Shown: piece after piece, positions 16,100 through 46,025 of the stretch | How the letters are laid out: each line of letters starts with the position of its first letter | Position numbering within the stretch: the first letter of the stretch is position 1 | From: Candidatus Culexmicrobium cathedralense | GTDB lineage: Archaea; Thermoproteota; Methanomethylicia; Culexarchaeales; Culexmicrobiaceae | DNA length: 64,000 bases | Direction: 5' to 3' | Assembly (NCBI GenBank): GCA_025061115.1 | Contig: JANZKC010000004.1 | Coordinates: 32,001-96,000 of the forward strand | Translations under genes and position numbers: made by a program | Notes under the pieces: generated by a model | Databases searched by the model: none | The model's input: the letters and a program-made list of their open reading frames with translations, nothing else | What the model was told of the DNA's origin: nothing

Positions 16100-16756
16100 T
16101 TGATGAATAAGTTGAGAGACGCAATAGTTGATATGCGATACTTACTTAGCCGGGGATATAAGCGGGAACAAGCCGCAAACTTTGTAGCAAATAGGTATGG
16201 GCTTTCAAAGGAGGAAAGAGCTATATTATATAGAGCTGTTTACGACGAAAAGCAAGCTAAAGATCATAAAATGAAAATAGTCGAACCAGACTACGTCGAA
16301 GGTAGAGTCCTTTCAATTGATGGATTTAACGTCTTAATAACCGTAGAAAGTGCCTTCCGCGGCAAACTTTTAATCGAATGCGACGACGGTTTCATACGTG
16401 ATGTCTCAGCGGTATTTGGCAAGTATCGCTTATCAGAATTCACTTGGAAGTCGACAGATCTGATATTGTCCTTTCTATCCAAGTGTAAGCCGAAATCAGT
16501 TTTATTTTTCCTAGATAGCCCCATAAGCCGCAGCGGTGAGTTAGCTTCCCAAATTCGCCGGCGGCTATCATACTTCAATTTGAGTGGAGACGCAAAAGCG
16601 GTGAAGCAAAGTGACACTGCTGTACTATCATCAGGGGAAGTAGTCGCGACAAGTGATCATATAATAATTCAGCGAGCTAATGCCGTTCTAGATCTGGCAG
16701 GGCAAATAGTCCGCAGCTATTTTCCACACTTGATCCTGAGAATTAATGATTTATAA
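16100..16756 (+). CDS. DUF434 family (PIN-like) protein
   Basis: YLLSRGY, IDGFNVLIT, DGFIRD, ATSD motifs. Confidence 0.85.
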   Translation: MMNKLRDAIVDMRYLLSRGYKREQAANFVANRYGLSKEERAILYRAVYDEKQAKDHKMKIVEPDYVEGRVLSIDGFNVLITVESAFRGKLLIECDDGFIRDVSAVFGKYRLSEFTWKSTDLILSFLSKCKPKSVLFFLDSPISRSGELASQIRRRLSYFNLSGDAKAVKQSDTAVLSSGEVVATSDHIIIQRANAVLDLAGQIVRSYFPHLILRINDL

Positions 16757-16763
16757 TGAAAAT

Positions 16764-16864
<101 letters not shown>

Positions 16865-16963
16865 TTGCCAATAATCGTTTATGCAAGCTGCAAATTAAGA
16901 TTTCGCTGGTAAAGCGATTAGCTATAATTGGCTCTCCAACATAAATTGAGTTAGTGGCTAACT

Positions 16964-17758
16964 ATGCTGGCGTTTGTTGGCCTTGGGCTTTACAGCGAAA
17001 GAAATATGTCAATTGAAGGATTGGAGGTAGCAAAGAAAGCTGACAGAGTGTACCTTGATACGTACACCAGTTTTATGCCGGGCTTATCAGTTGCTAGATT
17101 GGAAGAAATGATTGGCAAAAAGATCATCAAGCTGAAGCGCGAGGATATAGAATCGCAAAAAGCTCGAAAAATTTTAGAGGCAGCAGAAGAGGGAAACGTT
17201 GTTCTGCTTGTTCCTGGCGATCCATTTGTAGCAACAACACATATGCAGTTGCGTTTAGAAGCCGAGCGAAGAGGAATTAAGACTAGAGTTATTCATGCAT
17301 CATCTATATTTTCAGCTATATCGGGGGAAACTGGGCTTTTCAGCTATAAATTCGGCAGATCAGTCACTGTTACCTTCCCTCATGAAGGGTATGTTTCAGA
17401 AACAGCATATGAAGTCGTCAAGGAAAATAAGGAGCGCGGTTTGCATACGCTGTTACTATTGGATATTGATGTAGAAGGTAGGCGCTTTATGAGTGTAAGT
17501 GAGGCGCTCACAATTCTAACCCAAATTGAAAGTAGAAGGAAAGAGGAAATAATTAAGGAAGACACCTTGATTGTTGGGCTGGCCAGATTAGGAGGAGCGG
17601 ACGCAATTGTAAAAGCTGATTTTCTGTCAAACATAATTAACTATGATTTTGGCGGCCCTCCTCACTCAATCGTCATTCCTGGGAAGCTGCACTTCGTGGA
17701 AGCAGAGGCGCTAATTACTCTGGCTGGAGCGCCACGCACAATTTTAAATTACAAATAG
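16964..17758 (+). CDS. dph5: diphthine synthase
   Basis: VGLGL, GDPFVATTH, YKFGRS, GLHTLLLLD. Confidence 0.96.
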   Translation: MLAFVGLGLYSERNMSIEGLEVAKKADRVYLDTYTSFMPGLSVARLEEMIGKKIIKLKREDIESQKARKILEAAEEGNVVLLVPGDPFVATTHMQLRLEAERRGIKTRVIHASSIFSAISGETGLFSYKFGRSVTVTFPHEGYVSETAYEVVKENKERGLHTLLLLDIDVEGRRFMSVSEALTILTQIESRRKEEIIKEDTLIVGLARLGGADAIVKADFLSNIINYDFGGPPHSIVIPGKLHFVEAEALITLAGAPRTILNYK

Positions 17759-17783
17759 GGCTACACTCTTTTGGGCGAAGTGT

Positions 17784-18503
17784 ATGGAGCAAAAAGCCGT
17801 TACTGAAAAGGTCAATAAATATATTAATAGTTTAGCTTATGTTCTAAATCAAATTAAGAAAGAGAATATAGAAGAAGATAACGTTAAAAACGTCGTTGAT
17901 TTAGCTGGAAAATATTTGGCAGACGCAAAATATTACTTTAAAGCTGGGGACATCTTCACGAGTTTAGTCTGCGTAGTTTATGCTGAAGGCTTACTTGACT
18001 CGCTACGCTTTCTTGGAAAGCTTGAATATCATTGGCAATTTGAAGTGCCAAAAGCTGAGGAGAAGAAGGTAGTTATCGCTGGTACATTTGACCTCATACA
18101 TCCTGGTCATTTGTGGTTCATAAGAAAGGCGAGTGAGTATGGGAAGCTCACGGTAATAGTTGCTAGAGATGAGAGTGTAAAGAGGTTTAAAGGGCATTTA
18201 CCTATTATTCCGGAAAATCAGAGGCTTATGGTTGTTAAGGGTCTAAAGCACGTTGATGATGCAGTGCTCGGATACCCTGGTGAGGATATCTTGAGAATTA
18301 TGGAGAAGTTAAAGCCAGATGTAATAATTCTAGGACCTGATCAACACTTTGTGTCTGAGAAAGATCTTGAAGAGAAGTTGAGATCGAGGGGCCTTAGCAC
18401 TAAAGTGATTAGAATAGGAGAGCAGTACACTGATTGTAAGTTCTTCAAGACATCTGACATTATTAGAGAGATAAAACGTAGAGCTAATTTAAACAGGATC
18501 TAA
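17784..18503 (+). CDS. DUF357 domain fused to FAD synthase (RibL-type cytidylyltransferase)
   Basis: N-term YLADAKYY...YAEGLLD; C-term GTFDLIHPGH, VARD, LGPDQ. Confidence 0.8.
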   Translation: MEQKAVTEKVNKYINSLAYVLNQIKKENIEEDNVKNVVDLAGKYLADAKYYFKAGDIFTSLVCVVYAEGLLDSLRFLGKLEYHWQFEVPKAEEKKVVIAGTFDLIHPGHLWFIRKASEYGKLTVIVARDESVKRFKGHLPIIPENQRLMVVKGLKHVDDAVLGYPGEDILRIMEKLKPDVIILGPDQHFVSEKDLEEKLRSRGLSTKVIRIGEQYTDCKFFKTSDIIREIKRRANLNRI

Positions 18504-19155
18504 ATGACTTGCACAAATTATGTGCTACTCTAATTGGCTCAGGGACACTTTGATGCGAAATGCATTGAGAAACTACTTTTATCGCCGAGTTAAGGCTGAT
18601 TTTATGTCCTATGCTCACATAGATGAATTTAGATTTAACTTGAATTGCCGCGCCCAAAACTTTCCCCTTTAAGAGAATAGGGTAGACATTACTTTGAATA
18701 GGAGAGCTCAATAATATTTCGCCGCATAACTTCTTCTTTGCCACGCCTATTGAAGGAGTATCAACGGCAAGTCCAACATGGCAAGCTAAGCCAAAAAATC
18801 TGGGGTGCGCTCTGCCATGTCCATCAACTAAAATTAGATCTGGATTTCTCCTCAGTTTTTTCAATGCAAGGACTATTGGGCGCAGCTCTCTAAAGGCGAG
18901 AAATCCTGGGACATAGGGGAACTCCACTTCGCATGAGATGACTGATTCCTCGACAACCTTCAAGGATTGAAAGTCTAAAAGGGCTGCAGCAGCTATCGCC
19001 ATACCCTTTACATATGACGCATCGACGCCGCAGATCAATTTGGGAGGATAAACAAATACATCGCGATCTATAACTTTCATAGACAAAATCTTTTGAAGTT
19101 CCCTGGCTCTCTCAGGACTGAATTTCTTCCCCATTTTATTATAACTTGGCCACAC
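18484..19155 (-). CDS. nfi: endonuclease V
   Basis: GVDASY, PYVPGFLAFRE, VDGHGRAHPR, GVAKK. Confidence 0.95.
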   Translation of the reverse strand: MWPSYNKMGKKFSPERARELQKILSMKVIDRDVFVYPPKLICGVDASYVKGMAIAAAALLDFQSLKVVEESVISCEVEFPYVPGFLAFRELRPIVLALKKLRRNPDLILVDGHGRAHPRFFGLACHVGLAVDTPSIGVAKKKLCGEILLSSPIQSNVYPILLKGKVLGAAIQVKSKFIYVSIGHKISLNSAIKVVSQCISHQSVPEPIRVAHNLCKSFRSCLN

Positions 19156-19213
19156 ACTATACTGCGCGTCGCACCGATACTTTTAAATTTTTATTTTATT
19201 AGTCACACGTGAA

Positions 19214-20170
19214 ATGAAGATTCCAAGGCAAATCATTGAAATTTACAAGCGGCAGGGTTATCACTTTGTGGGTAAGACTAGCGTAGTAAAGCCCTGCCAT
19301 TGGCTTAAAGCATCTCTGTTAACTAAAGGAGAGAAGCACTGTTACAAGCAAAAGTTCTATGGAATACCTTCTCATAGGTGTCTTCAAATGTCGCCTACTC
19401 TTGCTTGCACTCAGCAATGCTTATATTGCTGGAGAATTCAAGCTTCAGATCTCAAGATTTCTTGGAATGAAATGTCATTAACAAACTACGATGAACCGGA
19501 GGAAATCGTGGTTAAAGCTATCTTGAAACAGAGACAAATTCTTTCAGGGCTAAAGAGTAACAAGAAAGTCGATAGAAGAATGCTCGAAGAAGCATTTAGG
19601 CCTATTCATGCTGCAATTAGCCTTGTTGGAGAGCCCACGCTTTACCCGAAAATTGGGGAGTTAATCGGCTCATTCTTTAGTCATGGATTTAAAACGGTCT
19701 TCTTAGTGACTAACGGAACCAATCCAAAGGTTCTCAGCAACTTGGATTATGAGCCAAGCCAACTTTATGTAAGCCTTTCAGCTCCAGATGAAGAGACCTA
19801 TAGAAAAGTCTGCAGACCAATAATAAACGACGGGTGGCAGCGATTAAATGAAACGTTAGAGCTTCTTAAGAGCTTTTCATGCCCGACTGTGATAAGAATT
19901 ACTCTAGTGAAAAAGTTAAACATGCATAGCCCAGAAAAGTATGCAAAGCTCATATGCAAGGCAGATCCAACGTATGTTGAGCCAAAAGCGGCAATGAGCC
20001 TCGGATGGTTTAGATATAGGCTTCCACTAGACGCGATGCCAAGATTTGAGGAAGTTAAGGATTTTGGAGAGCTATTGTCGAGGCACACGGGATACAATGT
20101 AATTGACTCTTCAATTAACTCGAGAATTGTCCTATTAAGTAGGTTGAATAGGCCTATGAAACTAATTTAA
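19214..20170 (+). CDS. taw1: 4-demethylwyosine synthase (Taw1/TYW1 radical SAM)
   Basis: CYKQKFYGI.SHRC, CTQQCLYCWR, SLVGEPT. Confidence 0.95.
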   Translation: MKIPRQIIEIYKRQGYHFVGKTSVVKPCHWLKASLLTKGEKHCYKQKFYGIPSHRCLQMSPTLACTQQCLYCWRIQASDLKISWNEMSLTNYDEPEEIVVKAILKQRQILSGLKSNKKVDRRMLEEAFRPIHAAISLVGEPTLYPKIGELIGSFFSHGFKTVFLVTNGTNPKVLSNLDYEPSQLYVSLSAPDEETYRKVCRPIINDGWQRLNETLELLKSFSCPTVIRITLVKKLNMHSPEKYAKLICKADPTYVEPKAAMSLGWFRYRLPLDAMPRFEEVKDFGELLSRHTGYNVIDSSINSRIVLLSRLNRPMKLI

Positions 20171-20172
20171 GC

Positions 20173-20769
20173 TCAGCTTTCAACTGGAACAAACTTTTCC
20201 TTAGCTCCTTCAGCGGTTATTGTTAAAACGTCGATTCCATCTCCTGAAATTGCATCTCTCTTAATGGCGGCTTTTACTGCTTCAATGGCAAGCTTTTCAC
20301 CATCAGTCACGTCCATGTTTGGCTTGTAGTTTGATTCAATAATGCTTATGGCCAAAGCCGCTCCTGAACCCACTGCTGCATACTTATCCTCTATTAGAGA
20401 GCCGAGGGGATCTAGCACATACAGGTGAGGTCCTGAAGAGTCAACGCCTGCAATTATCGTTTCAGTTAAGTATGGAATGAGCTTTTGACCATATAATATT
20501 ACGGAGAGAAGTTTCGCTAAGCTCCGCACTGGCATTGGGCGTTTATGATCTAAGTTGTACAGGCTTGCCTCTGCAGCTAGTGAACGAGCTATAACCTGCA
20601 TGTCTGAAATAAGGCCTGCACAGGCCATTCCCAAATGATTTGTAATTTTAAATACCTTCTTCCCAACCTTGCTTATTATTGTATAACCGTAAGCTACTCT
20701 TTTTTCAGAGGCTAATACAACACCATCTTTACAAACTATTCCCACTGCAGTTGCGCCTACAGTAGCCAT
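20173..20769 (-). CDS. psmB: proteasome beta subunit (Thr1 replaced by Ala)
   Basis: GATAVGI..DGVVLASE, GSG, RDAISGDG. Confidence 0.93.
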   Translation of the reverse strand: MATVGATAVGIVCKDGVVLASEKRVAYGYTIISKVGKKVFKITNHLGMACAGLISDMQVIARSLAAEASLYNLDHKRPMPVRSLAKLLSVILYGQKLIPYLTETIIAGVDSSGPHLYVLDPLGSLIEDKYAAVGSGAALAISIIESNYKPNMDVTDGEKLAIEAVKAAIKRDAISGDGIDVLTITAEGAKEKFVPVES

Positions 20770-21004
20770 GAGTTAAACCTCCACCTTCCACCGTCTATCA
20801 TAGTGGATTTAAAGTATATTAACGTTCTCAACCCACGTTCCTGCTATAGCGCTGAGAATTTAGGTTAAGTGAAATTAGTTCCCCTTGATTGCATCTCTAA
20901 GTGTCATCACAATTCCATGCTTACTTCAATTAGCTCTTGGCTGGCCCAAAAATATTAGTCTCAAGCGGCAATTAAGTTATCTGGTGAGACTCTATTAAAA
21001 TGAG

Positions 21005-22546
21005 ATGAACTCTATGGCTAGCGAGCTAAGGAGAGCTATAGCAAAAATACTCAGCATAGGCCTTCAAATAAGCCCAGATGCGGTCGACGTTCTTGCAAGG
21101 AGGAAGGATGCTCTTGAAATAGCCTGCAAAGTAGTTGAGAGACTTAAAGAATTAGATGAGAAGCCCATTGTTCTAACTGCGGACTTAATGTTTAAACTCA
21201 TTCAAGTTGAAGAAGCAAAGCAAGAAGAAGAGGAAATTGATGCTGAAAAAATTCCTGTGGATGAAGAAGTCATATTCGATCCAACGCAAGTTATACGCTC
21301 CGAAGGTAGTGCTGAAAGCTTTGTAAGTTACTTCGTAAGCCGGTATAACAAGTTAAAGAGGATAATGCTGAGAGAGCGCTTTGACGTGCGCAATGCCATT
21401 ACAATTAGTCAAATTAGGAAGTGGAGTCACAGGGGAAAAGGCACAGTAAAAGTGATCTGCATGGTAACTGGAAAGAGAAAAACTGCTGAGAGAAAAATTA
21501 TTCTCGAATTAGAAGACCCCACTGGCAGCATAGTAGCTGTAGTCAACGATAGAGACCCAAATGTCCTAAGCAGGGCTGAAAAAGTAATTCGAGATGAGGT
21601 GCTGTGTGTTGAGGGGCAATTAGTGGGTGACATACTATTAGTTTCAGATATTATTCAGCCAGAAGTTCCAATACCAAGTGTTCGCGAAAAGGGATCTGCG
21701 CCACCAGTATTTGCAGCCTTGATTTCTGACTTGCATGTAGGAAGCAAATACTTTATGCGTTCAGCATTTAATCGATTCCTACTCTGGATCAATGGCAAAC
21801 TAGGGGTGGAGAGGTATAGGAGTCTTGCTCGAAGAGTGAAATATTTGATAATTGCAGGGGATGTAGTTGATGGAATTGGAATATATCCTGAGCAGGAAAA
21901 AGAGCTGCTTGTTAAGGATATAAAAAAGCAATATAGAATGGCTGCAGAGTACTTAGCTCAAATTCCTACGCATATAAGGGTAATAATTATACCTGGAAAC
22001 CATGACGCCACCAGGCAGGCGCTTCCTTCACCATCAATTTTCAGAGACTGCGCTGAGCCAATATATCGGCTGCCCAACGTAAGGGTCATTGGCGACCCAG
22101 CATACGTTAAGCTTCATGGAGTGTTATTCCTAATAACCCATGGACGAAGCCTTGATGATGTACTGGCTACAACTCCTGGAGTTAGATATGATAAACCTGC
22201 AGAAGTCATGGTGGAGTTACTAAAGAGGAGGCACATTGCTCCCATATACGGTGGGAGAACTCAAATTGCACCGGAGAAGGAAGATTACCTTGTTATAGAT
22301 AAAATTCCAGACGTCTTTCATGCGGGGCACCTACACACTTTCGGATACATGAATTATAGGGGGGTAGTAATCGTGAATTCAGGTGCATGGCAAGAGCAGA
22401 CCGACTACATGAAGTCCATGGGGATCAAGCCGGATCCAGGAAAAGTCACGCTGGTGGATCTAAGTAATAAAAGGGTTCATGCAATATTGGACTTTGCTAA
22501 GGAGAAGAGTGTAGAAATGTTCAGTTCACTTAGCGCCATCATATAA
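21005..22546 (+). CDS. DNA polymerase D small subunit DP1
   Basis: SDLHVGS, AGDVVDG, PGNHD, HG, GHLH, NSG plus OB fold. Confidence 0.93.
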   Translation: MNSMASELRRAIAKILSIGLQISPDAVDVLARRKDALEIACKVVERLKELDEKPIVLTADLMFKLIQVEEAKQEEEEIDAEKIPVDEEVIFDPTQVIRSEGSAESFVSYFVSRYNKLKRIMLRERFDVRNAITISQIRKWSHRGKGTVKVICMVTGKRKTAERKIILELEDPTGSIVAVVNDRDPNVLSRAEKVIRDEVLCVEGQLVGDILLVSDIIQPEVPIPSVREKGSAPPVFAALISDLHVGSKYFMRSAFNRFLLWINGKLGVERYRSLARRVKYLIIAGDVVDGIGIYPEQEKELLVKDIKKQYRMAAEYLAQIPTHIRVIIIPGNHDATRQALPSPSIFRDCAEPIYRLPNVRVIGDPAYVKLHGVLFLITHGRSLDDVLATTPGVRYDKPAEVMVELLKRRHIAPIYGGRTQIAPEKEDYLVIDKIPDVFHAGHLHTFGYMNYRGVVIVNSGAWQEQTDYMKSMGIKPDPGKVTLVDLSNKRVHAILDFAKEKSVEMFSSLSAII

Positions 22547-22575
22547 TTGCCCTTAATGCTGGGGGAATTGATAAA

Positions 22576-23562
22576 ATGGTTAAGATACGAGATGTTGGTG
22601 AATGGAGAATAATTGAAACAATCTTCAATGAAATAAGAATGTATCGAGACATGCCGCTGCCCTACGGTGATGACGCTGCAGCACTTAAAGCCACTAAACA
22701 AAAATTCATTGTAGTCAACTCCGACATGTTAGTGGCATCAACAGACGTTCCTCCTGAGATGACGTACAAGCAGGTTGGACGTAAAGCAACTATAATGTGT
22801 ATAAGTGATCTAGCTGCAAAAGGTGCAAGGCCAATAGCGCTTCTTTTCGCGCTTGGACTAAAAGCGGACATGAATCTAAGCGACTTCAAGGAGCTGATTA
22901 GGGGGCTTGATGAGGGGGCAAAAGAGTATAACGCCTACATAATTGGCGGAGATGTAAATGAAGCTTGTGACCTAATAATTTCAGGGACAGCCATAGGCGT
23001 AGCAGACAACTTGATAAGTCGAAGTGGAGCAAGAGAGGGGGATATAGTTGCAGTTACTGGTGAATTTGGCAATACAGCAGCAGGGTTAAAAATCCTTCTT
23101 GAAGGCATGGATGCGCCGCTCCCACTTAAAAAGCGATTACTAAAAGCAGTGTACATGCCAAGGGCGCAAGTAAAAGAGGGGGTAGCATTAGCCGAAAGCA
23201 ACACTATTACATCAGCCATCGATAGCAGTGATGGACTTGCAATTTCACTGCATGAAATAGCGTCAAAAAGCGGAGTGGGCTTTGAAATCGGTAAATTGCC
23301 AATCTCAAAAGAAGCCGCCAAGTTCTCTCAAATGCACAATTTAGATCCATTTGAGCTCGTCTTCTACGGTGGAGAGGAATATCATCTGGTTGTCACGGTT
23401 AAGAGGGAAGAATTTTCTAAAGCGCTTGAAGCTGTGCAATCGGTTGGAGGGCAATTAATACCTATAGGAAAAGTCGTGAAAGAGAATAAAGTAATATTTA
23501 AGAGAAGGGGTGTTGAGAGGATTATCGAAAAAAGAGGATGGGAGCACTTTACAAGTAAATAA
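22576..23562 (+). CDS. thiL: thiamine-monophosphate kinase
   Basis: GDDAA, SDLAAKGA, GGD, DSSDGL, GGEEY. Confidence 0.94.
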   Translation: MVKIRDVGEWRIIETIFNEIRMYRDMPLPYGDDAAALKATKQKFIVVNSDMLVASTDVPPEMTYKQVGRKATIMCISDLAAKGARPIALLFALGLKADMNLSDFKELIRGLDEGAKEYNAYIIGGDVNEACDLIISGTAIGVADNLISRSGAREGDIVAVTGEFGNTAAGLKILLEGMDAPLPLKKRLLKAVYMPRAQVKEGVALAESNTITSAIDSSDGLAISLHEIASKSGVGFEIGKLPISKEAAKFSQMHNLDPFELVFYGGEEYHLVVTVKREEFSKALEAVQSVGGQLIPIGKVVKENKVIFKRRGVERIIEKRGWEHFTSK

Positions 23563-23579
23563 GCCACATAAGTGTCCAT

Positions 23580-25316
23580 ATGAAAAATGTTGAGCGCGTT
23601 TTCATAATTGATGGATACAATGATGAGCCAGCAGGGTTAGGGGTACCTCCATACCTAGATGTATATGCCAGATATTCTGCTGGAGCCATATGGACATATG
23701 ACAGAAGCATCCAAGTCTTCTACTTCACAATTGATGAAGTTAGGAAAAACTTTGATTTCGTAATTAAGAAGGCAAACTCCTCACAGTTAGTGATCGTGAT
23801 AGGTGGAATGATAGTTCCAGGGAAATATTTAGGTGGGGAGCCTATAAAGCCAGAAGAAGCATTAAAAATTGGAAAACTTCTCACAAAGCCTGTGAAGATC
23901 CTTGGAGGCCCTGCAGCGAAGTACGGCTTTGGATTGGAGGGTGGAAAGAGCCCAAAAAGAATGAAGGAGCTAGAAGACCACTATGACATCATAGTTAAAG
24001 GCGACTTAGAAGTAATCACATACCGCTTACTAACCGAGAAACTGCGCGTAGAAGCCGTAGATCCTTATGAGAAGAGGAAGAACGCCAGTGAAATAAGGGA
24101 CTATGCAATTAGAGGAGCAAAAATAGCTTTAGACCACCCAAATTACGGCTTAAACCTGATATGTGAAATTGAAACTTATAGAGGGTGCCCCCGCTTCATT
24201 ACAGGCGGGTGCTCGTTTTGCGCTGAAGTACTTCATGGTCTTCCGGATTTCAGGCCAATAAAAGACATTGTTGATGAAATAGAGGCGCTGTATAGAGTGG
24301 GTGTAACGCACTTTAGACTTGGAAGACAGCCTGACATATATAGCTACATGGCTTTAGGCGTGGGAGAAACGGAATTCCCTAAATTAAATCCATCAGCCAT
24401 AGAAAAGCTGTTCTCAGCAATAAGAAATGTCGCCCCCAACATCAAAGTGCTTCATATAGATAATGCAAATCCGGGCGCTATAGCGCATCATCCAGAGGAG
24501 GCCAGAGAAATAACGAAGATAATAGTCAAGTATCACACTCCAGGTGACGTAGCAGCTTTCGGTGTTGAATCGGCGGATCCAGCAGTAATAAAAGCTAACA
24601 ACTTAAAAGCCCAGCCTGAAGAAGCAATGAAAGCTATTGAAATAGTAAATGAAATAGGCGCTAGAAGAGGGTGGAATGGGCTTCCAGAGCTCTTACCAGG
24701 AGTAAACTTTGTTCATGGACTAATTGGCGAAACAGCAAAAACGTATCAACTAAATCTGGAGTTCATGAGAGAAGTGCTTGCCAGAGGATTACTAGTAAGG
24801 AGAATAAACATCAGACAGTGCATACCACTTCCAGGAACGCGGATGTGGAGTGTTGGAAACAAAATTATCAAGCGCCATAAGGGCATTTTCAAAAAATATA
24901 AAGAGAAAATGCGCAGAGAAATAGATTTGCCGATGCTTAAAAAGGTCATACCTACTTGGACTATTCTCAGAAAAGTATTCACTGAACAATCTGATGGTAG
25001 AATGACGCTGGCGAGGCAAGTTGGTTCTTACCCAATCCTCGTATCAATACCAATTAAAGTAGAATTAGGTAACTTTCTAGACGTGGTTATTGTTGATCAC
25101 GGTTACCGATCAGTAACCGGGCTACCCGTGCCACTAAGGATCAACAAAATGAGCGTGGAAACTCTAGCTAGAATACCTGGGGTAGGTAAAAGGCGTGCAG
25201 CTAAAATAGCAGTTAAACGTCCAATAAAAGGCGCTAAAGATTTAGATGAAATTATAGGCGACAGAAGCTTGGTTGAAAAAATATGCGAGATCGCTGACTT
25301 CACCGATGAAGGATAA
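23580..25316 (+). CDS. archaeal radical SAM protein with C-terminal HhH (COG1031-like)
   Basis: [15 protein letters not shown], Cx7Cx2[10 protein letters not shown] HhH. Confidence 0.85.
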
Positions 25317-25349
25317 ATTCTTAAATGTAACCCCAAACTATCAGATATG

Positions 25350-25455
25350 GGGCCCGTAGCTCAGCTTGGATAGAGCAACCTCATCCTAGCAGGATGAGGC
25401 TCGAGCCGGCCTTCTAAGCCGGGGGCCGCGGGTTCGAGTCCCGCCGGGCCCGCCA
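25350..25455 (+). tRNA. tRNA-Arg(TCT) with 28-nt intron at the D-arm/anticodon-arm junction (25/26 or 26/27)
   Basis: Anticodon arm CCGGC-CTTCTAA-GCCGG; intron hairpin CCTCATCCT/AGGATGAGG; encoded CCA. Confidence 0.92.
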
Positions 25456-25504: not shown

Positions 25505-26197
25505 TTAGATTACAAATCTCTCATAATCAATCAACTTAATTGCTAAGATAAAACATAGGAATAATATTAATGAAACAAGTAAAAGAGGAAACTGCATCCT
25601 CATCAAAGAAGCCAAATACGATACACTCCCCATAATTCTAGCCATAAGAACAATAAAGTTTATAATAATCAAGCTAATAATCGCAGGAATATACAAAACC
25701 AAGATATTCCTAGAAATAAGCTGTAATAATCCAACATTAACTATTAAAGAAAAAGACAATAAAGGATAGGATAAAAATAGAGAGAAAAGCATTTCCCAAC
25801 TTAAATTTAAGTTAACACCACCAACTATACAAGAAATATATGTTGCCACAGAACCTAGAGAAACATACAAATATGTTAGCAAGAGTATTGACAGAGATTT
25901 CCCAAAAATTATAATTGCTGGAGATAACGGCAAAGTAAGGAGATATTCAATAGTTCTAGAACTTTTCTCTCTAGAAAAGAACTGACCACAAAGAATTAAT
26001 GGCAGAAACATTGTATAGGGTTGAAAAAGATAAAAGAAAGCATACGACACCCTTGATTCATCAATCAAAAAAGGAATAAGTGATGAAGGTAAAAGAACAC
26101 TGATAAAGAGAACTATAAATTGCAACTTACTTCTAAAAACCATTTTTAAATCCTTCCTCATTATCAGCACTACTAGCTTAAAATTATTCAGAAACAA
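25505..26197 (-). CDS. ABC-2 type exporter permease (start uncertain)
   Basis: About 6 TM segments, EKSSRTIEYLLTLP..IIFGK motif. Confidence 0.88.
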   Translation of the reverse strand: MFLNNFKLVVLIMRKDLKMVFRSKLQFIVLFISVLLPSSLIPFLIDESRVSYAFFYLFQPYTMFLPLILCGQFFSREKSSRTIEYLLTLPLSPAIIIFGKSLSILLLTYLYVSLGSVATYISCIVGGVNLNLSWEMLFSLFLSYPLLSFSLIVNVGLLQLISRNILVLYIPAIISLIIINFIVLMARIMGSVSYLASLMRMQFPLLLVSLILFLCFILAIKLIDYERFVI

Positions 26198-27092
26198 ATT
26201 TCCTATACACCTCCTCCAAGGAAAATTCCTCAACTCCAATGCTCTTAAACCTACAATTAACCCTCATTAAAATCTCAGCAATTTTATTTGGATGCGAATC
26301 AACAAAAATTTCCAATTTCTCTCTATCAACCCAGAAGGATAGAGCATTAGATTTAAAAGCATTAACAGCTAAAACAAAGTTCTCCCCATCAAAAAATGTA
26401 ACCTTAACAACACCTCTAGAAAGCATCTCTTTAATCTCACTCTTAACACCTTGAATAACAAGCCTACCCTTATCTAGCAATATAATTTTCTCAGCTAAAT
26501 CATCAACTAACATCAAATCATTAGATGTTATAAAAATAGTCTTCCCTTCATCCCTCAAAGATCTAATTAAACGCTTAATTCTTTCCTGCCAAGTTAAATC
26601 CAAGAAAACAAGAGGTTCATCAAGAATTAGAAGCTCAGGATCATGAATTAAAGCTCCAACAAGAGAAAGTCTTCTCCGCATACCCTTAGAAAGTTTACCA
26701 ACAATAGTATCCAATTCATCTTCTAAACCAACCTGTCTAAGTAAATCCTTCAACTTCGATCTTCCAGCATCCAAGTTATAAGCTCTACTAAGAAAAAGAA
26801 GATTATCATATACTGTGAGTTCATCATACATACCATCAAAATCCAATAGTAAACCAATTCTAAACTTAATATTAACATTATTAAATGGATTTTCACCAAA
26901 AACTTTCACTATCCCTCTAGTAGGCTTAAGTAATCCAGCCATCAACTTAGAAATAGTAGTTTTACCAGCACCGTTTGGACCAATACAGCCTACAATTTCA
27001 CCACAATTCACTCTAAATGAAATATCATTAACACCAAGCCTGCTATGATAAAACTTCGATACACTATCAAATATAACAATATAATCACCCAT
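26184..27092 (-). CDS. ABC exporter ATP-binding subunit
   Basis: GPNGAGKTT, LSKGM signature, LILDEP; switch His appears as Asn. Confidence 0.92.
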   Translation of the reverse strand: MGDYIVIFDSVSKFYHSRLGVNDISFRVNCGEIVGCIGPNGAGKTTISKLMAGLLKPTRGIVKVFGENPFNNVNIKFRIGLLLDFDGMYDELTVYDNLLFLSRAYNLDAGRSKLKDLLRQVGLEDELDTIVGKLSKGMRRRLSLVGALIHDPELLILDEPLVFLDLTWQERIKRLIRSLRDEGKTIFITSNDLMLVDDLAEKIILLDKGRLVIQGVKSEIKEMLSRGVVKVTFFDGENFVLAVNAFKSNALSFWVDREKLEIFVDSHPNKIAEILMRVNCRFKSIGVEEFSLEEVYRKFVSE

Positions 27093-28464
27093 TAGAATCA
27101 CCAAATATTTTTGCACGTAAATTCATTTTACAACCCCAAGTACACTCATCTTTCAATGACTCCCACATTTTAATCCCTCTGGCAATACACCCTAAACAAA
27201 ACGCTAAATGAGAACATTTTTTGCAGACATCTTTATTAGGAAATGTAAGATGTAGGTCATTAAATATTAACATAATATTCTCTAAAGAATCACGAAAAAT
27301 ATTGCCCATATATAAATAAGTGGAAGGTAGCATTATGCAAGGTCTTACTTCACCTTTAGGATTGATAACTATAGATTTTCGCCCTGCACCACATCCAATA
27401 TTAATGAAACTTTCAACAATATGTTCAGGAATTATTTGTATAAATCCTCTAAATTTACGCCGTAGCTTTTTTACTTTTCTCATAAGCATTTTTACTTGAT
27501 TAGATGAGAGTTTAAGAGTATTATAGCTTCTTGAAGCTCTTCCAAAGGGTAATATCGGAGAGTAAGCAAAGGACGAAGCACCTAATTTTTTTGCAAGTTC
27601 AATAACATTTTCAATTTTAGTATAATTCTGAGGTGTAATACACGTTGAAACTCTCACTCTTATTTTAGCATCTGCTAACATTTTTATACTATTCACAGCT
27701 CTGTCAAAAGAGCCAGAAACTCCAGTAAAATAGTCATGATAATCGGAAGAATCGCTAAATAGAGTTATGCTAAAGCTAATAACATCTCTATACTTCTGAC
27801 ATATTTTGACTAAATTTCTATCAATATAATAACCATTAGTAATTACACTTACTATGAGAAAGTTTTTACAACAAAACTCAAGGATGTCAAGGAAATTACT
27901 ATGCAGAAGAGGCTCTCCCCCCGTTAATTCAACAATTCTAGAACCAGCTTTAGCATATTTTTTAAGAATGAATAATAATGCATCTGTTTTAATTTCTTCA
28001 CTGTAATTAAATGAGGAAAAAGCATAACAATGTTTACACCTAAAATTGCATTTATAAGTTAATTCAATGACTAGATGTAAAGGAATAGTGTACTTGTAAC
28101 TTCCTTTAATAATACTTGAAAAATCTTTGCCTCTAGCCAATGGAGAGTCCAGCAGATAAATATGGTTAAAATTCAATGCTTTTAAAATAAAAATTAAATT
28201 ACCTTTAAACTCTTGCTCATTTTTTGACAAAATTTCCAAAATTTCCTTGACTGTTCGTGTTCCATTGCATAAAAGAAGTAGATTAAGAGCATCTTGATTT
28301 ATTAATGCGTATCTCATGGAAGATCTAGTTGATGATTCGTTTATACGTGGTCGTTCTATTAGATATGCTCCCTCGGGTGCTTTGTGTAGCAAAATAGAAT
28401 CCGAAAGTACAGGATATTTCGTAAGTATATTCTCTCTTGAAGAAGTTTGTACATAATGTTTCAT
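27085..28464 (-). CDS. RRE + radical SAM + SPASM peptide maturase (AlbA-like)
   Basis: PqqD-like INQDALNLLLLCNGTRTVKEI; CNFRCKHC; GGEP; SPASM CGAG...GEVRPC...CxxCx5CxxC; ATG 1 nt after precursor stop. Confidence 0.9.
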   Translation of the reverse strand: MKHYVQTSSRENILTKYPVLSDSILLHKAPEGAYLIERPRINESSTRSSMRYALINQDALNLLLLCNGTRTVKEILEILSKNEQEFKGNLIFILKALNFNHIYLLDSPLARGKDFSSIIKGSYKYTIPLHLVIELTYKCNFRCKHCYAFSSFNYSEEIKTDALLFILKKYAKAGSRIVELTGGEPLLHSNFLDILEFCCKNFLIVSVITNGYYIDRNLVKICQKYRDVISFSITLFSDSSDYHDYFTGVSGSFDRAVNSIKMLADAKIRVRVSTCITPQNYTKIENVIELAKKLGASSFAYSPILPFGRASRSYNTLKLSSNQVKMLMRKVKKLRRKFRGFIQIIPEHIVESFINIGCGAGRKSIVINPKGEVRPCIMLPSTYLYMGNIFRDSLENIMLIFNDLHLTFPNKDVCKKCSHLAFCLGCIARGIKMWESLKDECTWGCKMNLRAKIFGDSNG

Positions 28465-28465
28465 A

Positions 28466-28612
28466 TTACTCTCCAAAAAGCACTGCTACAGTTGTTGAAT
28501 TAGCTACAACGATTATTGCAGGAGAAGTACCGCATGAAAGACAACCCTCACATAGGAAGCATGCAAAACAAAATTCTGCTATTGGTTCTACTTCGTACTT
28601 AGCTACCATCAT
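28466..28612 (-). CDS. putative sactipeptide-like RiPP precursor, 48 aa (not in ORF track)
   Basis: MMVAKYEVEPIAEFCFACFLCEGCLSCGTSPAIIVVANSTTVAVLFGE; GGAGG SD and TATA upstream; abuts rSAM gene. Confidence 0.85.
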   Translation of the reverse strand: MMVAKYEVEPIAEFCFACFLCEGCLSCGTSPAIIVVANSTTVAVLFGE

Positions 28613-28635
28613 CCATCTCCTCCACTTTCTTCTAT

Positions 28636-28657
28636 TTTTTTAAATATATATTTTTCG
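28636..28657 (-). promoter_or_regulatory. candidate BRE/TATA promoter of the RiPP operon
   Basis: Minus strand CGAAAAATATATATTTAAA about 30-45 nt upstream of the precursor start. Confidence 0.5.
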
Positions 28658-28754
28658 TTAAATAAAAGAGTAATAGTGTATATTATTATACATCAAACTA
28701 TAAACTATATAAGGAGACCACTATAGGCTAAGTTATAAAATCAATATATTTTAA

Positions 28755-28868
28755 TTATTTTAAAATAAGATTTGAGAAATGTCTTCGTATAATATGGCCA
28801 GCCAGGTCAAGAACCTTAGTTGCCCGCTCAATAATTACACAATCACTTGTAGCAATCACTGTCACCAT
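28755..28868 (-). pseudogene. 3' fragment of a DUF434 gene homolog
   Basis: VIATSDCVIIERATKVLDLAGHIIRRHFSNLILK aligns ungapped to the C-terminus of 16100-16756 (21/34 identical by hand count). Confidence 0.85.
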
Positions 28869-28974
28869 AATTGTTTTTCCAGCTATATATTGCAGTTAAA
28901 GTTTTAGCCGTATAATTTAGCTGGCCTAGTATGTTGTTTTTAGTTAGCCATGAGCTTGCCTTTAAGTTATAGTT

Positions 28975-29274
28975 TCACTCTTTCGAGTATGGTCCGAAGT
29001 TTAGTGTCTGGCTTTTACTTGATAGTTTTGGACCGCCTTTTTCACTGAAGCTTTCAACAAGATTTGCCCATTCTGGTGTTTTAATTGTTATTTTTCCACT
29101 TACTGGATACTTCTTAACTTCACGTTTATACAACTTATATCCCATGAATTGTCCGTTTGGTGGTGGATTGTCATGCCATTGGTTGTTCCAATAATACTTG
29201 TCTATGTAAATAATCTTCTTAGTGGATGTATGTGTTACCTTGATTTTTGTTAAGGTTGAGCAGTAATTGTACTT
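28975..29274 (-). pseudogene. startless open frame, probable truncated gene of unknown family
   Basis: About 99 stop-free codons in AT-rich DNA (..KIKVTHTSTKKIIYIDKYYWNNQWHDNPPPNGQFMG..). Confidence 0.35.
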
Positions 29275-29625
29275 TTAGAGCAGTTGAGAGAGATATAGCT
29301 TTGGTTCCGACGCCAATGGAAGTTTTAGGTGTAATTGTTTCTAGGGATCCAACAGTTAAATGGTTAAAGTTCTATAGATATGTGATAGATGACTTTGAGA
29401 ATAAGGCTATTCAGCGAAACATTCTTTTTGTCAGTGCTATTCCATACATGATTTTTAGGAGAATTACTGATTTCATGGAAAGTAAGATCAGTAAAGATGA
29501 TGAGAGAAAGCTATTCCAATTAATATTCCATAAATGCTACTGGACTCATCTGCTAAGTGTTTCACATGTGATAAATTTCAGTTTAAAATGAAAAACGCTA
29601 AGAAGTGCGCAAATAAGTGGCTTTT
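29247..29625 (+). pseudogene. possible frameshifted uracil-DNA glycosylase-like gene fragment
   Basis: IVSRDPT, then YWTHL / frameshift / KCF...NAKKCANKWL. Confidence 0.35.
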
Positions 29626-29962
29626 TCTTGGTTGTATATATTTTCTTTTATTGCGAATGCTAGGTAGTATTTTCTAAGTATTTTGTATTCTCTTGGTATG
29701 GCTCTTCCTTGCAATGCGTCTATTACTTTTCTCATAGTATTCTTATTAGGCTCATATGGGTTGTATATAATGCTCTTTAGATCATCCAATCAAACATAAT
29801 AATGAAGTTATAAACACTCGCCAATTAATTTGATTATAAAAATTAACATCATTCTCTACTAATGTTTCATTCTGCAATTTTGATGATCATTTAGGATAAT
29901 ATGGTGTGATGAAGTGTTTCAGTTTATCATGAATTACTGAAACGTTAGTATATAAATTTCAA

Positions 29963-30010
29963 GCCTTCTAAGCCGGGGGCCGCGGGTTCGAGTCCCGCCG
30001 GGCCCGCCAT
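29963..30010 (+). repeat. att site: duplicated 3' half of tRNA-Arg
   Basis: GCCTTCTAAGCCGGGGGCCGCGGGTTCGAGTCCCGCCGGGCCCGCCAT identical to 25409-25456. Confidence 0.95.
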
Positions 30011-43875: not shown

Positions 43876-44037
43876 ATGCCAATACACGACCCTGAAAAAC
43901 TCAAGATCGCACAGCAACGAAGACTATTTGTAAAAATATGCAGAAGATGCGGCGCAAGAAACGCTCCATCCGCAGAGAAGTGCAGACGATGCAGAAGCAA
44001 AAATCTGCGATGGAAGAGAAGAGAGCGCTCACGCTAA
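43876..44037 (+). CDS. rpl40e: 50S ribosomal protein eL40 (not in ORF track)
   Basis: [25 protein letters not shown]. Confidence 0.95.
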
Positions 44038-44135
44038 ACTCCAAGACAATAAATAACTACATTATTCTGATCACCTTAACCAACTAAAAGTAGATTTAAT
44101 AGTAAATTTTTAAGGTGCAATCCAATATTTTAACT

Positions 44136-44212
44136 GGGCGGGTGGTCTAGCTGGCTAGGATTCCGCCCTCACACGGCGGAGGTCGTGGGTTCGAATCCCA
44201 CCCCGCCCACCA
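44136..44212 (+). tRNA. tRNA-Val(CAC)
   Basis: Cloverleaf, CCGCC-CTCACAC-GGCGG, encoded CCA. Confidence 0.95.
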
Positions 44213-44322
44213 CTACCATCAAATTGATGATTGTAATTATTGCTCTATGCTCCACATTTATTACACATATTCTTGATATAATGCCCTGCAATTCTGCTTT
44301 AATAGAGAAATGAATCATTACC

Positions 44323-44889
44323 TCATTGAACAACTCTCAAATTAATTTTATATTCAACAGTTTGCAATGGAAAATAACCTACAAACATTAATGCATATAT
44401 CCTAAATCTTAGCGTTATGGTTAAAACATAATTTTTAGGAGGAATCTGATATTTGACTAGATGCATATTAATAATTATGTGATCGCCCATATTCCACCAA
44501 TAATCACCAATGTTAAAAATGGTGAAGTATTTATCAAAACATATCAAATCAATTATTTCAATAGTAAACCCAGTTATAATTGGAATAGTAATGTTTTCAG
44601 AAATTTTTCCAATAATTATTTTAAATAAATGTGGCACTCCCTGCGCAAGTTTAGAAGCATTAACATAAATTGGATGTATGCCTACGAGCAATTTTAATGA
44701 GCCAAAATTTGATTTAATTAGTATATACTCAAAGTGCCATGGATATGTCGAGTTCATTTCTAATAACTTATTAACAGTATTCTCTTCAATTGTGTTTAAT
44801 TTTTTAGGAGAAAAATAATTATATATGAAGATTGATGATATAAATAGAAATATAATAAATATAAAGAAAAATTTCTTATATCTTTTCAT
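44323..44889 (-). CDS. hypothetical membrane-anchored protein
   Basis: N-terminal TM helix; AT-rich islet. Confidence 0.7.
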   Translation of the reverse strand: MKRYKKFFFIFIIFLFISSIFIYNYFSPKKLNTIEENTVNKLLEMNSTYPWHFEYILIKSNFGSLKLLVGIHPIYVNASKLAQGVPHLFKIIIGKISENITIPIITGFTIEIIDLICFDKYFTIFNIGDYWWNMGDHIIINMHLVKYQIPPKNYVLTITLRFRIYALMFVGYFPLQTVEYKINLRVVQ

Positions 44890-44916
44890 TTTTTATCACC
44901 GATTCTATCTTAATAG

Positions 44917-45714
44917 TCATGGTGGTATAACATTTACTATTATTTGAAAGCTTATTTGATAAGTGCCGATGTATATGTTCCTAAGTGTCAGGGGTTGAAT
45001 TATCTCCGAAGATCTTCCTGAAGGCGATATTGAGTCTAGCCATCCAGGATCATTTGTCTCAAGGTATATGCTGGCTTCAGCAGTTATCGTAACAACATAT
45101 TGTCCTTCATAATCAAAAGCAGTAAACATTTTTGAAGCAGCTGTAACTGAATGATCATTCATTGTAAATTGAATCCAATGACCACCTGAACCTATAGTGA
45201 GAGAAACTGGCGATGGATAATATTTTAGTAGCATTTCTATAACCCCCAATATGTCAAGTAGCGTTTCAAGTAACTCCCTATACTCAAAAGTCCCCTCATC
45301 ACCACTACCTAAGTTAGTTTCGATATATTCTACGTGCGAACTAAATACGCAATGCTCCCCGCCATCTATCTTTACCCACATACTGCCGACATAAGGTTTA
45401 TAATAATACGTTTCACCACTTGGAGTAGTTCTAGTCCATTCATCTTCTAGTCTAACTGCTAATGAGACTTTCCATAGCCAATCATCCCCTTGCGGGACAT
45501 CCGTATAATACTCAATAGCGACAGCAAATCCTTTTGAGACAACGTGACTGCCAGAGCCATCATCATAGTAATAATAGAACCACGTTGTATCTCCGCTACT
45601 TTCACGTTTAAGTGTTGGAGCATATGCTTTCAATGTTATTAATGGGACCATCATTAATAGTATCAAAATTATTATTAATATTTTTACTTTGAAATTTTCC
45701 ATATTTTCACCCAC
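44917..45714 (-). CDS. hypothetical secreted protein
   Basis: Signal peptide ending AYA; acidic, Tyr/Ser/Thr-rich. Confidence 0.72.
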   Translation of the reverse strand: MGENMENFKVKILIIILILLMMVPLITLKAYAPTLKRESSGDTTWFYYYYDDGSGSHVVSKGFAVAIEYYTDVPQGDDWLWKVSLAVRLEDEWTRTTPSGETYYYKPYVGSMWVKIDGGEHCVFSSHVEYIETNLGSGDEGTFEYRELLETLLDILGVIEMLLKYYPSPVSLTIGSGGHWIQFTMNDHSVTAASKMFTAFDYEGQYVVTITAEASIYLETNDPGWLDSISPSGRSSEIIQPLTLRNIYIGTYQISFQIIVNVIPP

Positions 45715-46025
45715 TTTTATTTTAATTTTTTCCTATATATATATTTTTTAAACTTCATAATAATAGAAAATTTTAAACTATTATCATTTTCTTGGGAAAA
45801 TTAAGAGCAATTTAAGGTGAACTAAGAACCTCAAGGAAAGCTGATGAGCGTTCATAATTATAATATTTGATTTTGGTGTGGATTTAGGCATTGATGGAAC
45901 TGAATTAATAAGCTTTTCTTATTTGAGATTCTAGGAGAATAGTTGAAAACTCATGATTATTTGGACTAGATCTGATATGCCATTTCAGTGTTCTGAAGAT
46001 GAGTTGTGATTATGCAGATTTATAC

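Follow-up and report, generated by a model that had tools for sequence, protein, structure and literature searches.

The stretch analysed here (hereafter the window) comprises 64,000 nucleotides (nt) of contig JANZKC010000004.1 of Candidatus Culexmicrobium cathedralense, an archaeon from hydrothermal sediment. It contains a four-gene cassette (25505-28612, minus strand) that is read, with a probability of about 0.62, as a compact operon for a peptide made ribosomally and modified after translation (RiPP) of the subtilosin/thurincin type (i.e. a type 1, nested-hairpin sactipeptide) carried on a decayed integrative element. The genes encode, in order, a 48-amino-acid (aa) peptide, an enzyme of the radical S-adenosylmethionine (SAM) class with a RiPP recognition element (RRE) and a SPASM domain, an ATP-binding cassette (ABC) ATPase and an ABC-2 permease. 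The original prediction, made from the sequence alone, was of a cluster for an exported, thioether-crosslinked peptide. As an assignment to a nested-hairpin sactipeptide cluster, this is well supported by homology of the enzyme and of the precursor family, whilst Cα chemistry, export and an antimicrobial role are what we infer from it. That the cluster is the cargo of an insert in a tRNA gene had been missed. The features of the cassette are as follows.

28613-28754, minus strand: AT-rich spacer upstream of the peptide gene, putative promoter, containing a TATA-like run and, ahead of the ATG, a ribosome-binding-like GGAGGAG

28466-28612, minus strand: precursor peptide, 48 aa, comprising a ~14-aa leader, a ladder of five Cys (period 3), a turn of Gly-Thr-Ser-Pro and a 17-aa tail of hydrophobic or small residues

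27085-28464 (from ATG), minus strand: RRE/radical SAM/SPASM peptide maturase, AlbA/SkfB-like, 459 aa

26184-27092 (from ATG), minus strand: ABC ATPase, DrrA/NatA-like (PF00005; TIGR01188 drrA)

25505-26161 (from ATG; open frame to a TTG at 26239), minus strand: ABC-2 type permease (PF12730 ABC2_membrane_4)

The list of open reading frames (ORFs) bore out the tight, co-directional packing of the four genes that had been described. The coordinates also agreed with the earlier claims that the enzyme begins 1 nt past the peptide stop codon (GGAGAG TAA t ATG) and that the ATPase start overlaps the enzyme gene, in this case its last 8 nt. A Shine-Dalgarno-like GGAGAG for the enzyme sits within the final codons of the peptide gene. 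The permease start is ambiguous, with the ATG giving a gap of 22 nt after the ATPase stop codon and the TTG at 26239 an overlap of 56 nt. The spacer upstream of the peptide gene spans 142 nt at roughly 20% GC, and its homologue in a related genome (i.e. G002, see below) has 20% GC.

The enzyme was examined using domain, family and structure searches. All three segments quoted in the original prediction, including GNIFRDS, were found in the translation, and the domain searches that had been proposed as a check matched both the radical SAM core (Pfam PF04055; 1.4e-23) and SPASM (PF13186; 9.1e-8, 32.7 bits against a cut-off of 21.5). Among the 86 NCBIfam models that matched, AlbA was first (NF012164; 1.3e-59, 201.8 bits) and aligned over its full length (enzyme residues 21-450 to model positions 1-432 of 442), followed by GeoRSP (137 bits) and SkfB (133 bits), the last of these aligning from the N-terminal domain onward. 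Models for the NirJ2, AhbD and mycofactocin maturases (117-126 bits) and for PapB and StsB (93 bits each) aligned only from residue ~130. The enzyme therefore did not group with the non-RiPP SPASM families, AlbA being the top model and NirJ2 and AhbD (~125 bits) covering the core only; on these scores it is best described as a distant relative of AlbA, and not as an AlbA orthologue or equivalog. A sequence search of the PDB returned SkfB (5.7e-30, 107.6 bits), PqqE (2.7e-14, 56 bits), CteB (6.3e-11, 44.9 bits) and SuiB (1.5e-7), with the SkfB (6efn) alignment stopping near enzyme residue 398. An AlphaFold2 model of the enzyme (mean predicted local distance difference test, pLDDT, 88.9; predicted template modelling score 0.88) was ranked by Foldseek closest to SkfB (3.2e-25; TM 0.62/0.74) and then to SuiB and CteB over 394-478 aligned columns, and these top three matches are all RRE-bearing peptide maturases. 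In an alignment of the window sequence with 31 homologues of 29-35% identity, the CxxxCxxC motif of the radical SAM core (C139/C143/C146) and seven SPASM cysteines (C358, C376, C414, C417, C423, C426 and C441) were invariant in all 32 sequences. Such an arrangement is expected for one SAM cluster plus two auxiliary ones, the binding of which is predicted. At the one position compared with a published profile of six catalytic-proximity residues of hairpin sactisynthases (PMC10288494), the first, the enzyme has a Tyr (Tyr147), as does StsB (Tyr113). In a plasmid search the only relatives retrieved were distant (identities of 31% or less) and bore PqqD-family or radical SAM annotations.

An N-terminal RRE is predicted to be present, with mixed direct evidence. 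The AlphaFold2 model places three strands (residues 17-37) and three helices (57-98) in an N-terminal unit with pLDDT mostly above 86; PF05402 (PqqD) was matched by 15 of the 32 aligned sequences; and a profile of the domain aligned nearly end to end (residues 15-93) with PqqD (5sxy), weakly, at E 0.033. On these three lines, an enzyme devoid of an RRE, the outcome that had been set against the original prediction, was not what was found. Complex prediction for the enzyme with the peptide (SAM and three clusters included) gave a score of 0.57 (runs of 0.01, 0.61 and 0.57), the best of three controls reaching 0.00, with at least 23% of contacts in agreement and a partner pLDDT of at least 33. 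In the calibration 58 of 80 solved complexes and two of 110 mismatched pairs attained the mark, scores of 0.60 or below came from only seven of those 80 complexes and from both passing mismatches, and these figures apply only roughly to predictions using our own alignments and ligands. The prediction thus lends weak support to binding of the peptide by the enzyme.

The Cys-rich peptide was found as described, with its 48 residues containing CxxCxxCxxCxxC (Cys at residues 15, 18, 21, 24 and 27). It is the only one of 1697 stop-to-stop frames (at least 20 aa) of the window with at least four Cys at period 3. Relatives of the enzyme were found in 369 stretches of species-representative genomes, the best 80 of which were taken as loci; these belong to Methanobacteriota, Thermoproteota, Bathyarchaeia and Nanoarchaeota and to many phyla of bacteria. 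A same-strand upstream ORF of at most 130 aa with C..C..C was present in 60 of the 80 (one of them, in L034, is probably spurious), and seven further loci contained longer precursors. An ABC ATPase gene lay downstream in 38 of the 80 and a permease gene, by a simple phmmer search, in eight, many of the loci being truncated at contig ends. The nearest complete four-gene match, from a Thermoproteota archaeon (L001), has the same gene order and an enzyme of 40% identity.

Common to the peptides of these loci are a Cys block (three to seven residues, period 3), in most cases a turn of Ser/Thr-Pro, and a tail built of small and hydrophobic residues. Archaea and some bacteria have short leaders (10-20 aa), often with a Pro at about position 4-5; long leaders (~65-85 aa) are found in bacteria. 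The only invariant columns among 22 precursors were four Cys, corresponding to C18, C21, C24 and C27 of the window peptide. Two of ten precursors tested passed the Pfam Subtilosin_A model (34.3 bits for L048 and 26.7 bits for L054, against a cut-off of 25). When the composition correction of HMMER was off, the window peptide ranked first of the 1697 frames (E 6.5e-4) with a profile made from 62 related cores, its own excluded; also excluded from this profile were frames containing X, cores outside 18-60 aa and four frames (L051_1704, L056_1002, L071_3773 and L034_3094) that either overlapped genuine precursors or seemed spurious. A second profile, of eight peptides with the Subtilosin_A Pro-x-Pro-Asp/Glu loop, found the window peptide at E 6.7e-4 among 7617 frames (correction off), and every match ranked above it was a precursor of a related locus. 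In a large protein collection, 14 of 379 candidates were short-leader peptides at E 0.01 or better, all named 'hypothetical protein' and without a family. NCBIfam searches with ten related precursors gave nothing informative, one long-leader peptide having a weak nitrile-hydratase-alpha match (E 0.011). Judged by these profiles, the peptides form a broad, unnamed Cys-ladder precursor family that stands beside AlbA-like enzymes and is tied to subtilosin. In four loci (L012, L017, L018 and L042) two or three tandem precursor genes with differing cores precede one enzyme gene; tandem precursor copies are also reported for thurincin H (PMC8172795).

Selection on the peptide and enzyme genes was assessed by comparison with the copy in G002. 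The peptide genes differ by four synonymous changes and one non-synonymous change, the latter in a leader residue, leaving the core unchanged. The enzyme genes differ by 34 synonymous and 15 non-synonymous changes over 404 codons, i.e. a ratio of non-synonymous to synonymous rates (dN/dS) of 0.11. These values and the mostly synonymous changes in the peptide indicate that the small ORF is a real gene under constraint.

For the putative transport genes, the ATPase matched ABC_tran (PF00005; 2.3e-28) and, in NCBIfam, TIGR01188 drrA (190 bits; cut-off 312) and the lantibiotic-protection ATPase family (134.8 bits). The permease matched ABC2_membrane_4 (PF12730; 8e-8, 32.9 bits against a cut-off of 27). 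An ABC pair of this DrrA/lantibiotic-protection kind would export the product, protect the producer, or both.

The cassette lies in an insert bounded by a tRNA gene and a copy of the 3' half of that gene. The remaining features of the insert are given below.

25350-25455, plus strand: tRNA-Arg gene (anticodon TCT) with a 39-nt non-canonical insertion (intron); Rfam tRNA match at 25350-25452, 47.3 bits

25409-25456, plus strand: left 48-nt repeat copy (attL-like), the 3' half of the tRNA-Arg gene

28755-28868, minus strand: relic of the 3' end of a DUF434/DUF5616 gene, G002-like, 31/34 aa identical to the G002 gene

28869-29597, no strand assigned: unexplained rest of the insert, ~730 nt, with open frames of 99 aa (minus) and 115 aa (plus) of no family

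29598-29789, minus strand: tyrosine integrase remnant (C-terminal part with the catalytic Tyr), found by tblastn to a paralogue in the same genome

29963-30010, plus strand: right 48-nt repeat copy (attR-like), a tRNA 3' half without the 5' half

The repeat is direct, with its two copies 100% identical over 48 nt and spaced by 4554 nt, and equals the 3' half of tRNA-Arg(TCT). In the intervening 4506 nt the GC fraction is 0.316, as compared to 0.424 and 0.425 in the flanks. The tRNA was missed at 25350 by ARAGORN and its identity was taken from Rfam (47.3 bits against a gathering threshold of 29; E 4.3e-8) and the anticodon loop (CUUCUAA); with introns allowed, ARAGORN gave inconsistent Leu, Ser, Lys and Ile names to what are, by alignment, one tRNA-Arg(TCT) and one tRNA-Lys family. 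This tRNA-Arg is 97% identical over 106 nt to a tRNA of a genome of the same genus (G001). The integrase remnant (~60 codons) has no Pfam match itself and aligned by tblastn (35% over 60 aa; E 2e-6) with the second ORF of an integrase beside a tRNA-Val gene in the same genome, an ORF that matches the Archaeal phage integrase family (PF16795; 2.4e-6). The DUF5616 relic (Pfam E 0.007) was the sole Pfam or PHROGs result from five frames in the right part of the insert, in which these searches recognised no viral or plasmid genes; frames of 28869-29597 had no match better than E 0.1 in either database, and this segment had no DNA match in 40 related genomes. The last ~370 nt, including the repeat (29644-30010), are 85% identical to a stretch of the same layout in another related genome (G005). 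An empty site is seen in G001 and G003, where a radical SAM-HHH gene, tRNA-Arg and the DUF5616 gene are contiguous and tRNA-Arg directly precedes the DUF5616 gene (by 22 and 136 nt, respectively) with no insert. The right flank of the window insert differs from this site because an 8.7-kb segment is inverted in the window. A tRNA near the Trm5-like gene of the relatives was considered as the empty site and rejected, being a different tRNA (Lys); the true site is beside the DUF5616 gene.

Comparison of 41 related genomes points to recent arrival of the cassette on an integrative element. A full-length orthologue of the enzyme was present in only two of these, the genome of the window (G000) and G002, a member of the same family and another genus; all others gave a match to the radical SAM core only (E ~1e-30). 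The G002 copy is 94.5% identical over 1629 nt and its enzyme is 96% identical at the protein level, as compared to 54% and 68% for the two housekeeping orthologues compared between these genomes (the Trm5-like and DUF5616 proteins, respectively), a discrepancy that points to recent transfer. On its contig, G002 has the end of the leucyl-tRNA synthetase gene, an intact DUF434/DUF5616 gene, a 142-nt spacer, the peptide gene and the enzyme gene, in that order, and breaks off within the enzyme gene. Nucleotide identity with the window begins within the last 116 nt of this DUF434/DUF5616 gene, and the relic in the window, i.e. the last 34 codons of such a gene, is identical at 31 of 34 positions to the G002 gene as compared to 21 of 34 for the intact copy of the window (16103-16744). 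The G002 flanks (~35-36% GC) are much nearer to the insert (31.6%) than is the 42% of the window. Together these data point to a genome of the sister genus, similar to G002, as the source. In such a donor the cluster would lie between the DUF5616 gene and tRNA-Arg; a tRNA-integrating element most likely excised imprecisely, carrying the cluster and a piece of the neighbouring gene, and would then have integrated into the tRNA-Arg gene of this lineage and decayed.

Several other rearrangements and remnants were observed at tRNA genes in these genomes. The inverted 8.7-kb segment (16765-25455) runs from a tRNA-Lys(CTT)-like gene to tRNA-Arg(TCT) and is inverted relative to G001, G003, G004 and G002, in all four of which tRNA-Lys adjoins the Trm5-like gene, tRNA-Arg adjoining the DUF5616 gene in G001 and G003. 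The two tRNA genes bounding the segment have near-identical 3' ends in inverted orientation. The tRNA-Lys(CTT)-like gene (16765-16863, minus strand) has a non-canonical insertion and was called Arg(ACG) by ARAGORN and Lys(CTT) by alignment with an intron-less relative. In G004 (contig C13; L112, local positions 214-1500), tRNA-Arg(TCT) and the DUF5616 gene are separated by ~1.29 kb of AT-rich DNA; it had no match to the window insert and could be a trace of another insertion at the same site. Contig C8 of G005 (L116/L119) contains a VapB/VapC-like pair (an AbrB-type antitoxin and a PIN-domain toxin, named from their translations only; L116 local positions 542-1169) beside the integrase and tRNA-half remnant that is similar to the right end of the window insert. 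The integrase by tRNA-Val(GAC) in the genome of the window (contig C2, 458690-461825; L117) is split into frames of 331 and 104 aa, the second of which is the one matching Archaeal phage integrase, and is followed by a large gene.

The state of the insert in public data was also considered. The stretch is contained in public contigs of four runs from four studies, and none of these was reported to join the two sides of the insert. No RNA run was among those listed, which weighs neither for nor against expression. In run X2 the flanks had contig depths of 95-96 and pieces of the insert 25-42, and in run X1 97 and 79-89, respectively; at most this hints that some of the population is without the insert, and the depths do not give a share of cells. 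The genome of the window has an estimated contamination of 7.65%. In runs X1, X2 and X4, portions of the permease, ATPase and enzyme genes (25741-26132 and 26817-27181) are also covered by contigs of lower depth that differ by ~8-9%, one example having 28 differences in 358 nt at a depth of 14 (X1). Since these divergent contigs occur together with ones that match the window exactly, the same samples contain a second allele of the cluster.

Comparisons with characterised systems bear on the probable product. In Bacillus subtilis the subtilosin A locus (sboA-albABCDEFG) likewise runs from precursor through RRE-radical SAM-SPASM maturase and ABC ATPase to membrane protein; AlbA is the best curated model for the window enzyme over its full length, and related precursors pass Subtilosin_A. 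AlbA is reported to act by Cα-hydrogen abstraction with three [4Fe-4S] clusters (PMC10114670). The window cluster differs in lacking AlbB, AlbG and the AlbE/F proteins of leader removal and head-to-tail cyclisation, in having five Cys at strict period 3 and not three Cys, in a peptide that fails PF11420 and in its archaeal host; with AlbC and AlbD it was compared by gene kind. Thurincin H (ThnA/ThnB) of Bacillus thuringiensis has the same Cys period followed by an acceptor tail, a likeness of pattern only: Cys4, 7, 10 and 13 are described as bridging to residues 28, 25, 22 and 19 in a nested hairpin of four sactionines (PMC8172795), and ThnB as having a PqqD-like domain and being highly similar to AlbA (PMC10288494). 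The window peptide has five Cys and not four, and its cluster is without the ThnP protease or a peptidase-type exporter. SkfB, the maturase of the sporulation killing factor (6efn) and a sactisynthase with an N-terminal RRE, is the closest solved structure by both sequence and fold; it forms a single sactionine, and its alignment ends near residue 398, whereas the window enzyme has the full seven-Cys SPASM pattern.

Archaeal clusters of related kinds have been reported. Subtilosin-like clusters comprising a precursor, albA-like and albC-like genes and a membrane protein were predicted in Thermococcus celer and T. nautili, were found to be patchy and were read as horizontal transfers, argued to be from Caldicellulosiruptor (bioRxiv 10.64898/2026.07.27.741052). 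Compared by their description, these predictions resemble the window cluster in archaeal host, hyperthermophile setting and minimal gene set; they differ in having direct SboA homologues where the window has a diverged Cys-ladder peptide and in belonging to another archaeal phylum, and it is in the window that a transfer vehicle is visible. For CrpC of Methanococcus voltae, an archaeal RRE-radical SAM-SPASM enzyme, installation of thioethers on the Cys-rich substrate encoded next to it, CrpA, was demonstrated by experiment in 2026 (PMC13692751). Its thioethers are ranthionines, as compared to the sactionines predicted here, its substrate is described as a large repeat protein, and it is placed in an orphan family (TIGR04463; PMC13692751), which was absent from the 25 best models for the window enzyme. 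As for the element, integrative elements of archaea that target tRNA genes and have SSV-type tyrosine integrases share with it the direct repeat of the tRNA 3' half, low-GC cargo and empty sites in relatives, and the relative of its integrase remnant belongs to the Archaeal phage integrase family of Pfam. The window insert differs in being only 4.5 kb long, in having an integrase of ~60 codons, in the lack of recognisable viral or plasmid genes and in its chromosomal fragment of another genus.

By analogy with these systems, the 48-aa precursor would be made and its leader of ~14 residues bound by the N-terminal RRE of the enzyme. The radical SAM cluster would then cleave SAM, the resulting 5'-deoxyadenosyl radical would take an alpha-hydrogen from a residue of the C-terminal tail, and Cys sulfurs would be joined to tail alpha-carbons as in AlbA. 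Repetition over C18, C21, C24, C27 and perhaps C15 would yield a ladder-like hairpin about the Gly-Thr-Ser-Pro turn. Four, perhaps five, sactionines are expected because the Cys period is that of thurincin H and because AlbA and ThnB are reported to be close. The ABC ATPase and ABC-2 permease would export the product and/or shield the producer, and the leader would be cut by a host protease or retained, since no leader protease or cyclase is encoded.

A number of observations weigh against the reading of the locus as a sactipeptide operon on a decayed element. For the enzyme, the AlbA score is less than a quarter of the 850-bit equivalog cut-off, the window sequence alone has no PF05402 match at E 0.1, the PqqD match of the domain profile ranked second to an unrelated designed protein and one complex run in three scored 0.01. 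The window peptide matched no Pfam or NCBIfam family at E 0.1 or better, including Subtilosin_A (PF11420; cut-off 25 bits), and with the composition correction on it fell to 18th with the 62-core profile (E 4.8), a drop due to the removal of 12 bits by that correction. The cluster encodes no protease, cyclase or regulator and no AlbE/F-type protein. Regiochemistry is not fixed by sequence similarity, sacti- and ranthisynthases being reported to interleave in a superfamily where full-length similarity misleads (PMC10288494), and CrpC, the sole characterised archaeal enzyme of this kind, makes ranthionines (PMC13692751). With regard to the element, no intact integrase is present, the same map would result from other sequences of events as well as from the capture model, and the integrated state rests on the assembly, as public k-mer contigs break at the 48-nt repeat and none bridges either copy.

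Alternative chemistries and an inactive locus were weighed on this evidence. An operon of the same logic could make non-alpha thioethers (i.e. ranthionines) or small local rings, the product then being a ranthipeptide. This rival stays live because the only characterised archaeal RRE-radical SAM-SPASM thioether enzyme, CrpC, installs ranthionines (PMC13692751), and it gains from the significant matches of the window enzyme to the ranthisynthase CteB and to PapB and from the misleading nature of full-length similarity noted above (PMC10288494). It was nevertheless judged unlikely, since AlbA (201.8 bits) and SkfB (133 bits) outscore PapB (93 bits), SkfB outscores CteB in the PDB search (107.6 against 44.9 bits), related precursors include Subtilosin_A members, the tail is without the Asp/Glu/Asn-rich motifs of C-x-x-x-D type described for ranthipeptides (PMC13692751), and a donor block followed by an acceptor tail is the layout of hairpin sactipeptides (PMC8172795). 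Another radical reaction (i.e. a C-C or C-O crosslink or an epimerisation), with the Cys ladder serving as a metal or Fe-S site, would accord with the second place of SuiB, a Lys-Trp crosslinking enzyme, in the fold ranking, with the many peptide reactions reported for radical SAM-SPASM enzymes (PMC10114670) and with the capacity of CxxC repeats to bind metals. Against this, four Cys are the sole invariant columns in 22 precursors, as expected for reacting residues, the nearest curated families form thioethers and the tail has no conserved aromatic or Lys partners, so that such a reaction seems highly improbable.

Loss of function would offer a different account, in which the cluster, as the decaying load of a defunct element, is silent or no longer functional in its host. 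The integrase remnant, the gene fragment beside the cluster and the hint from contig depths that the insert is missing from part of the population all fit this, but the four ORFs are intact and tightly coupled, the enzyme dN/dS is 0.11 and the peptide core is identical between the two copies, making it quite improbable. The notion that the enzyme matures a cofactor or a protein (NirJ/AhbD/anSME-like), with the small ORF as a chance frame, is disfavoured and scarcely credible: the NirJ2, AhbD and mycofactocin maturase models do reach 117-126 bits, but they cover the core only, from residue ~130; the enzyme has an N-terminal RRE-like domain, and the small ORF recurs beside homologues in 60 of 80 loci and shows purifying selection.

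The sactipeptide reading places the cluster within a known kind, given that sactipeptide and ranthipeptide clusters of archaea have been surveyed, Thermococcus clusters predicted and CrpC activity demonstrated. In the published surveys only lanthipeptides are given as validated (PMC12144867; PMC13635244), and the archaeal RiPP chemistry reported as shown by experiment consists of lanthipeptides (PMC12144867) and the one ranthionine-installing enzyme, CrpC (PMC13692751). The earlier claim of novelty was accordingly overstated; no characterised archaeal sactipeptide was found in the literature searched. What is new here is the broad unnamed Cys-ladder precursor family and the visible transfer vehicle, although that family may already figure in the RODEO precursor list and the catalytic-proximity table of PMC10288494. 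A more ambitious synthesis would make the product the first archaeal sactipeptide, a five-rung thioether ladder of a large unnamed precursor family (in methanogens, Thermoproteota-related archaea and many bacterial phyla), and an exported weapon with its matching pump that hops between hydrothermal archaeal genera by a pick-up resembling specialised transduction on a tRNA-integrating element and is still polymorphic; the conjunction of all these parts is put forward tentatively and is doubtful as a whole. With four genes, a 48-aa substrate and a natural, near-identical second copy, the locus is a minimal test case. It shows movement of a cluster between archaeal genera and so bears on whether archaea trade antimicrobial cassettes.

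Elsewhere in the window, a second low-GC stretch (44213-46000; GC fraction 0.327 in the 44001-46000 bin) begins directly past a tRNA-Val(CAC) gene (44136-44212). No direct repeat of at least 20 nt was found for this stretch. Its two minus-strand ORFs (188 and 265 aa) have hydrophobic N-termini and fall into no obvious family; the stretch may be another small islet.

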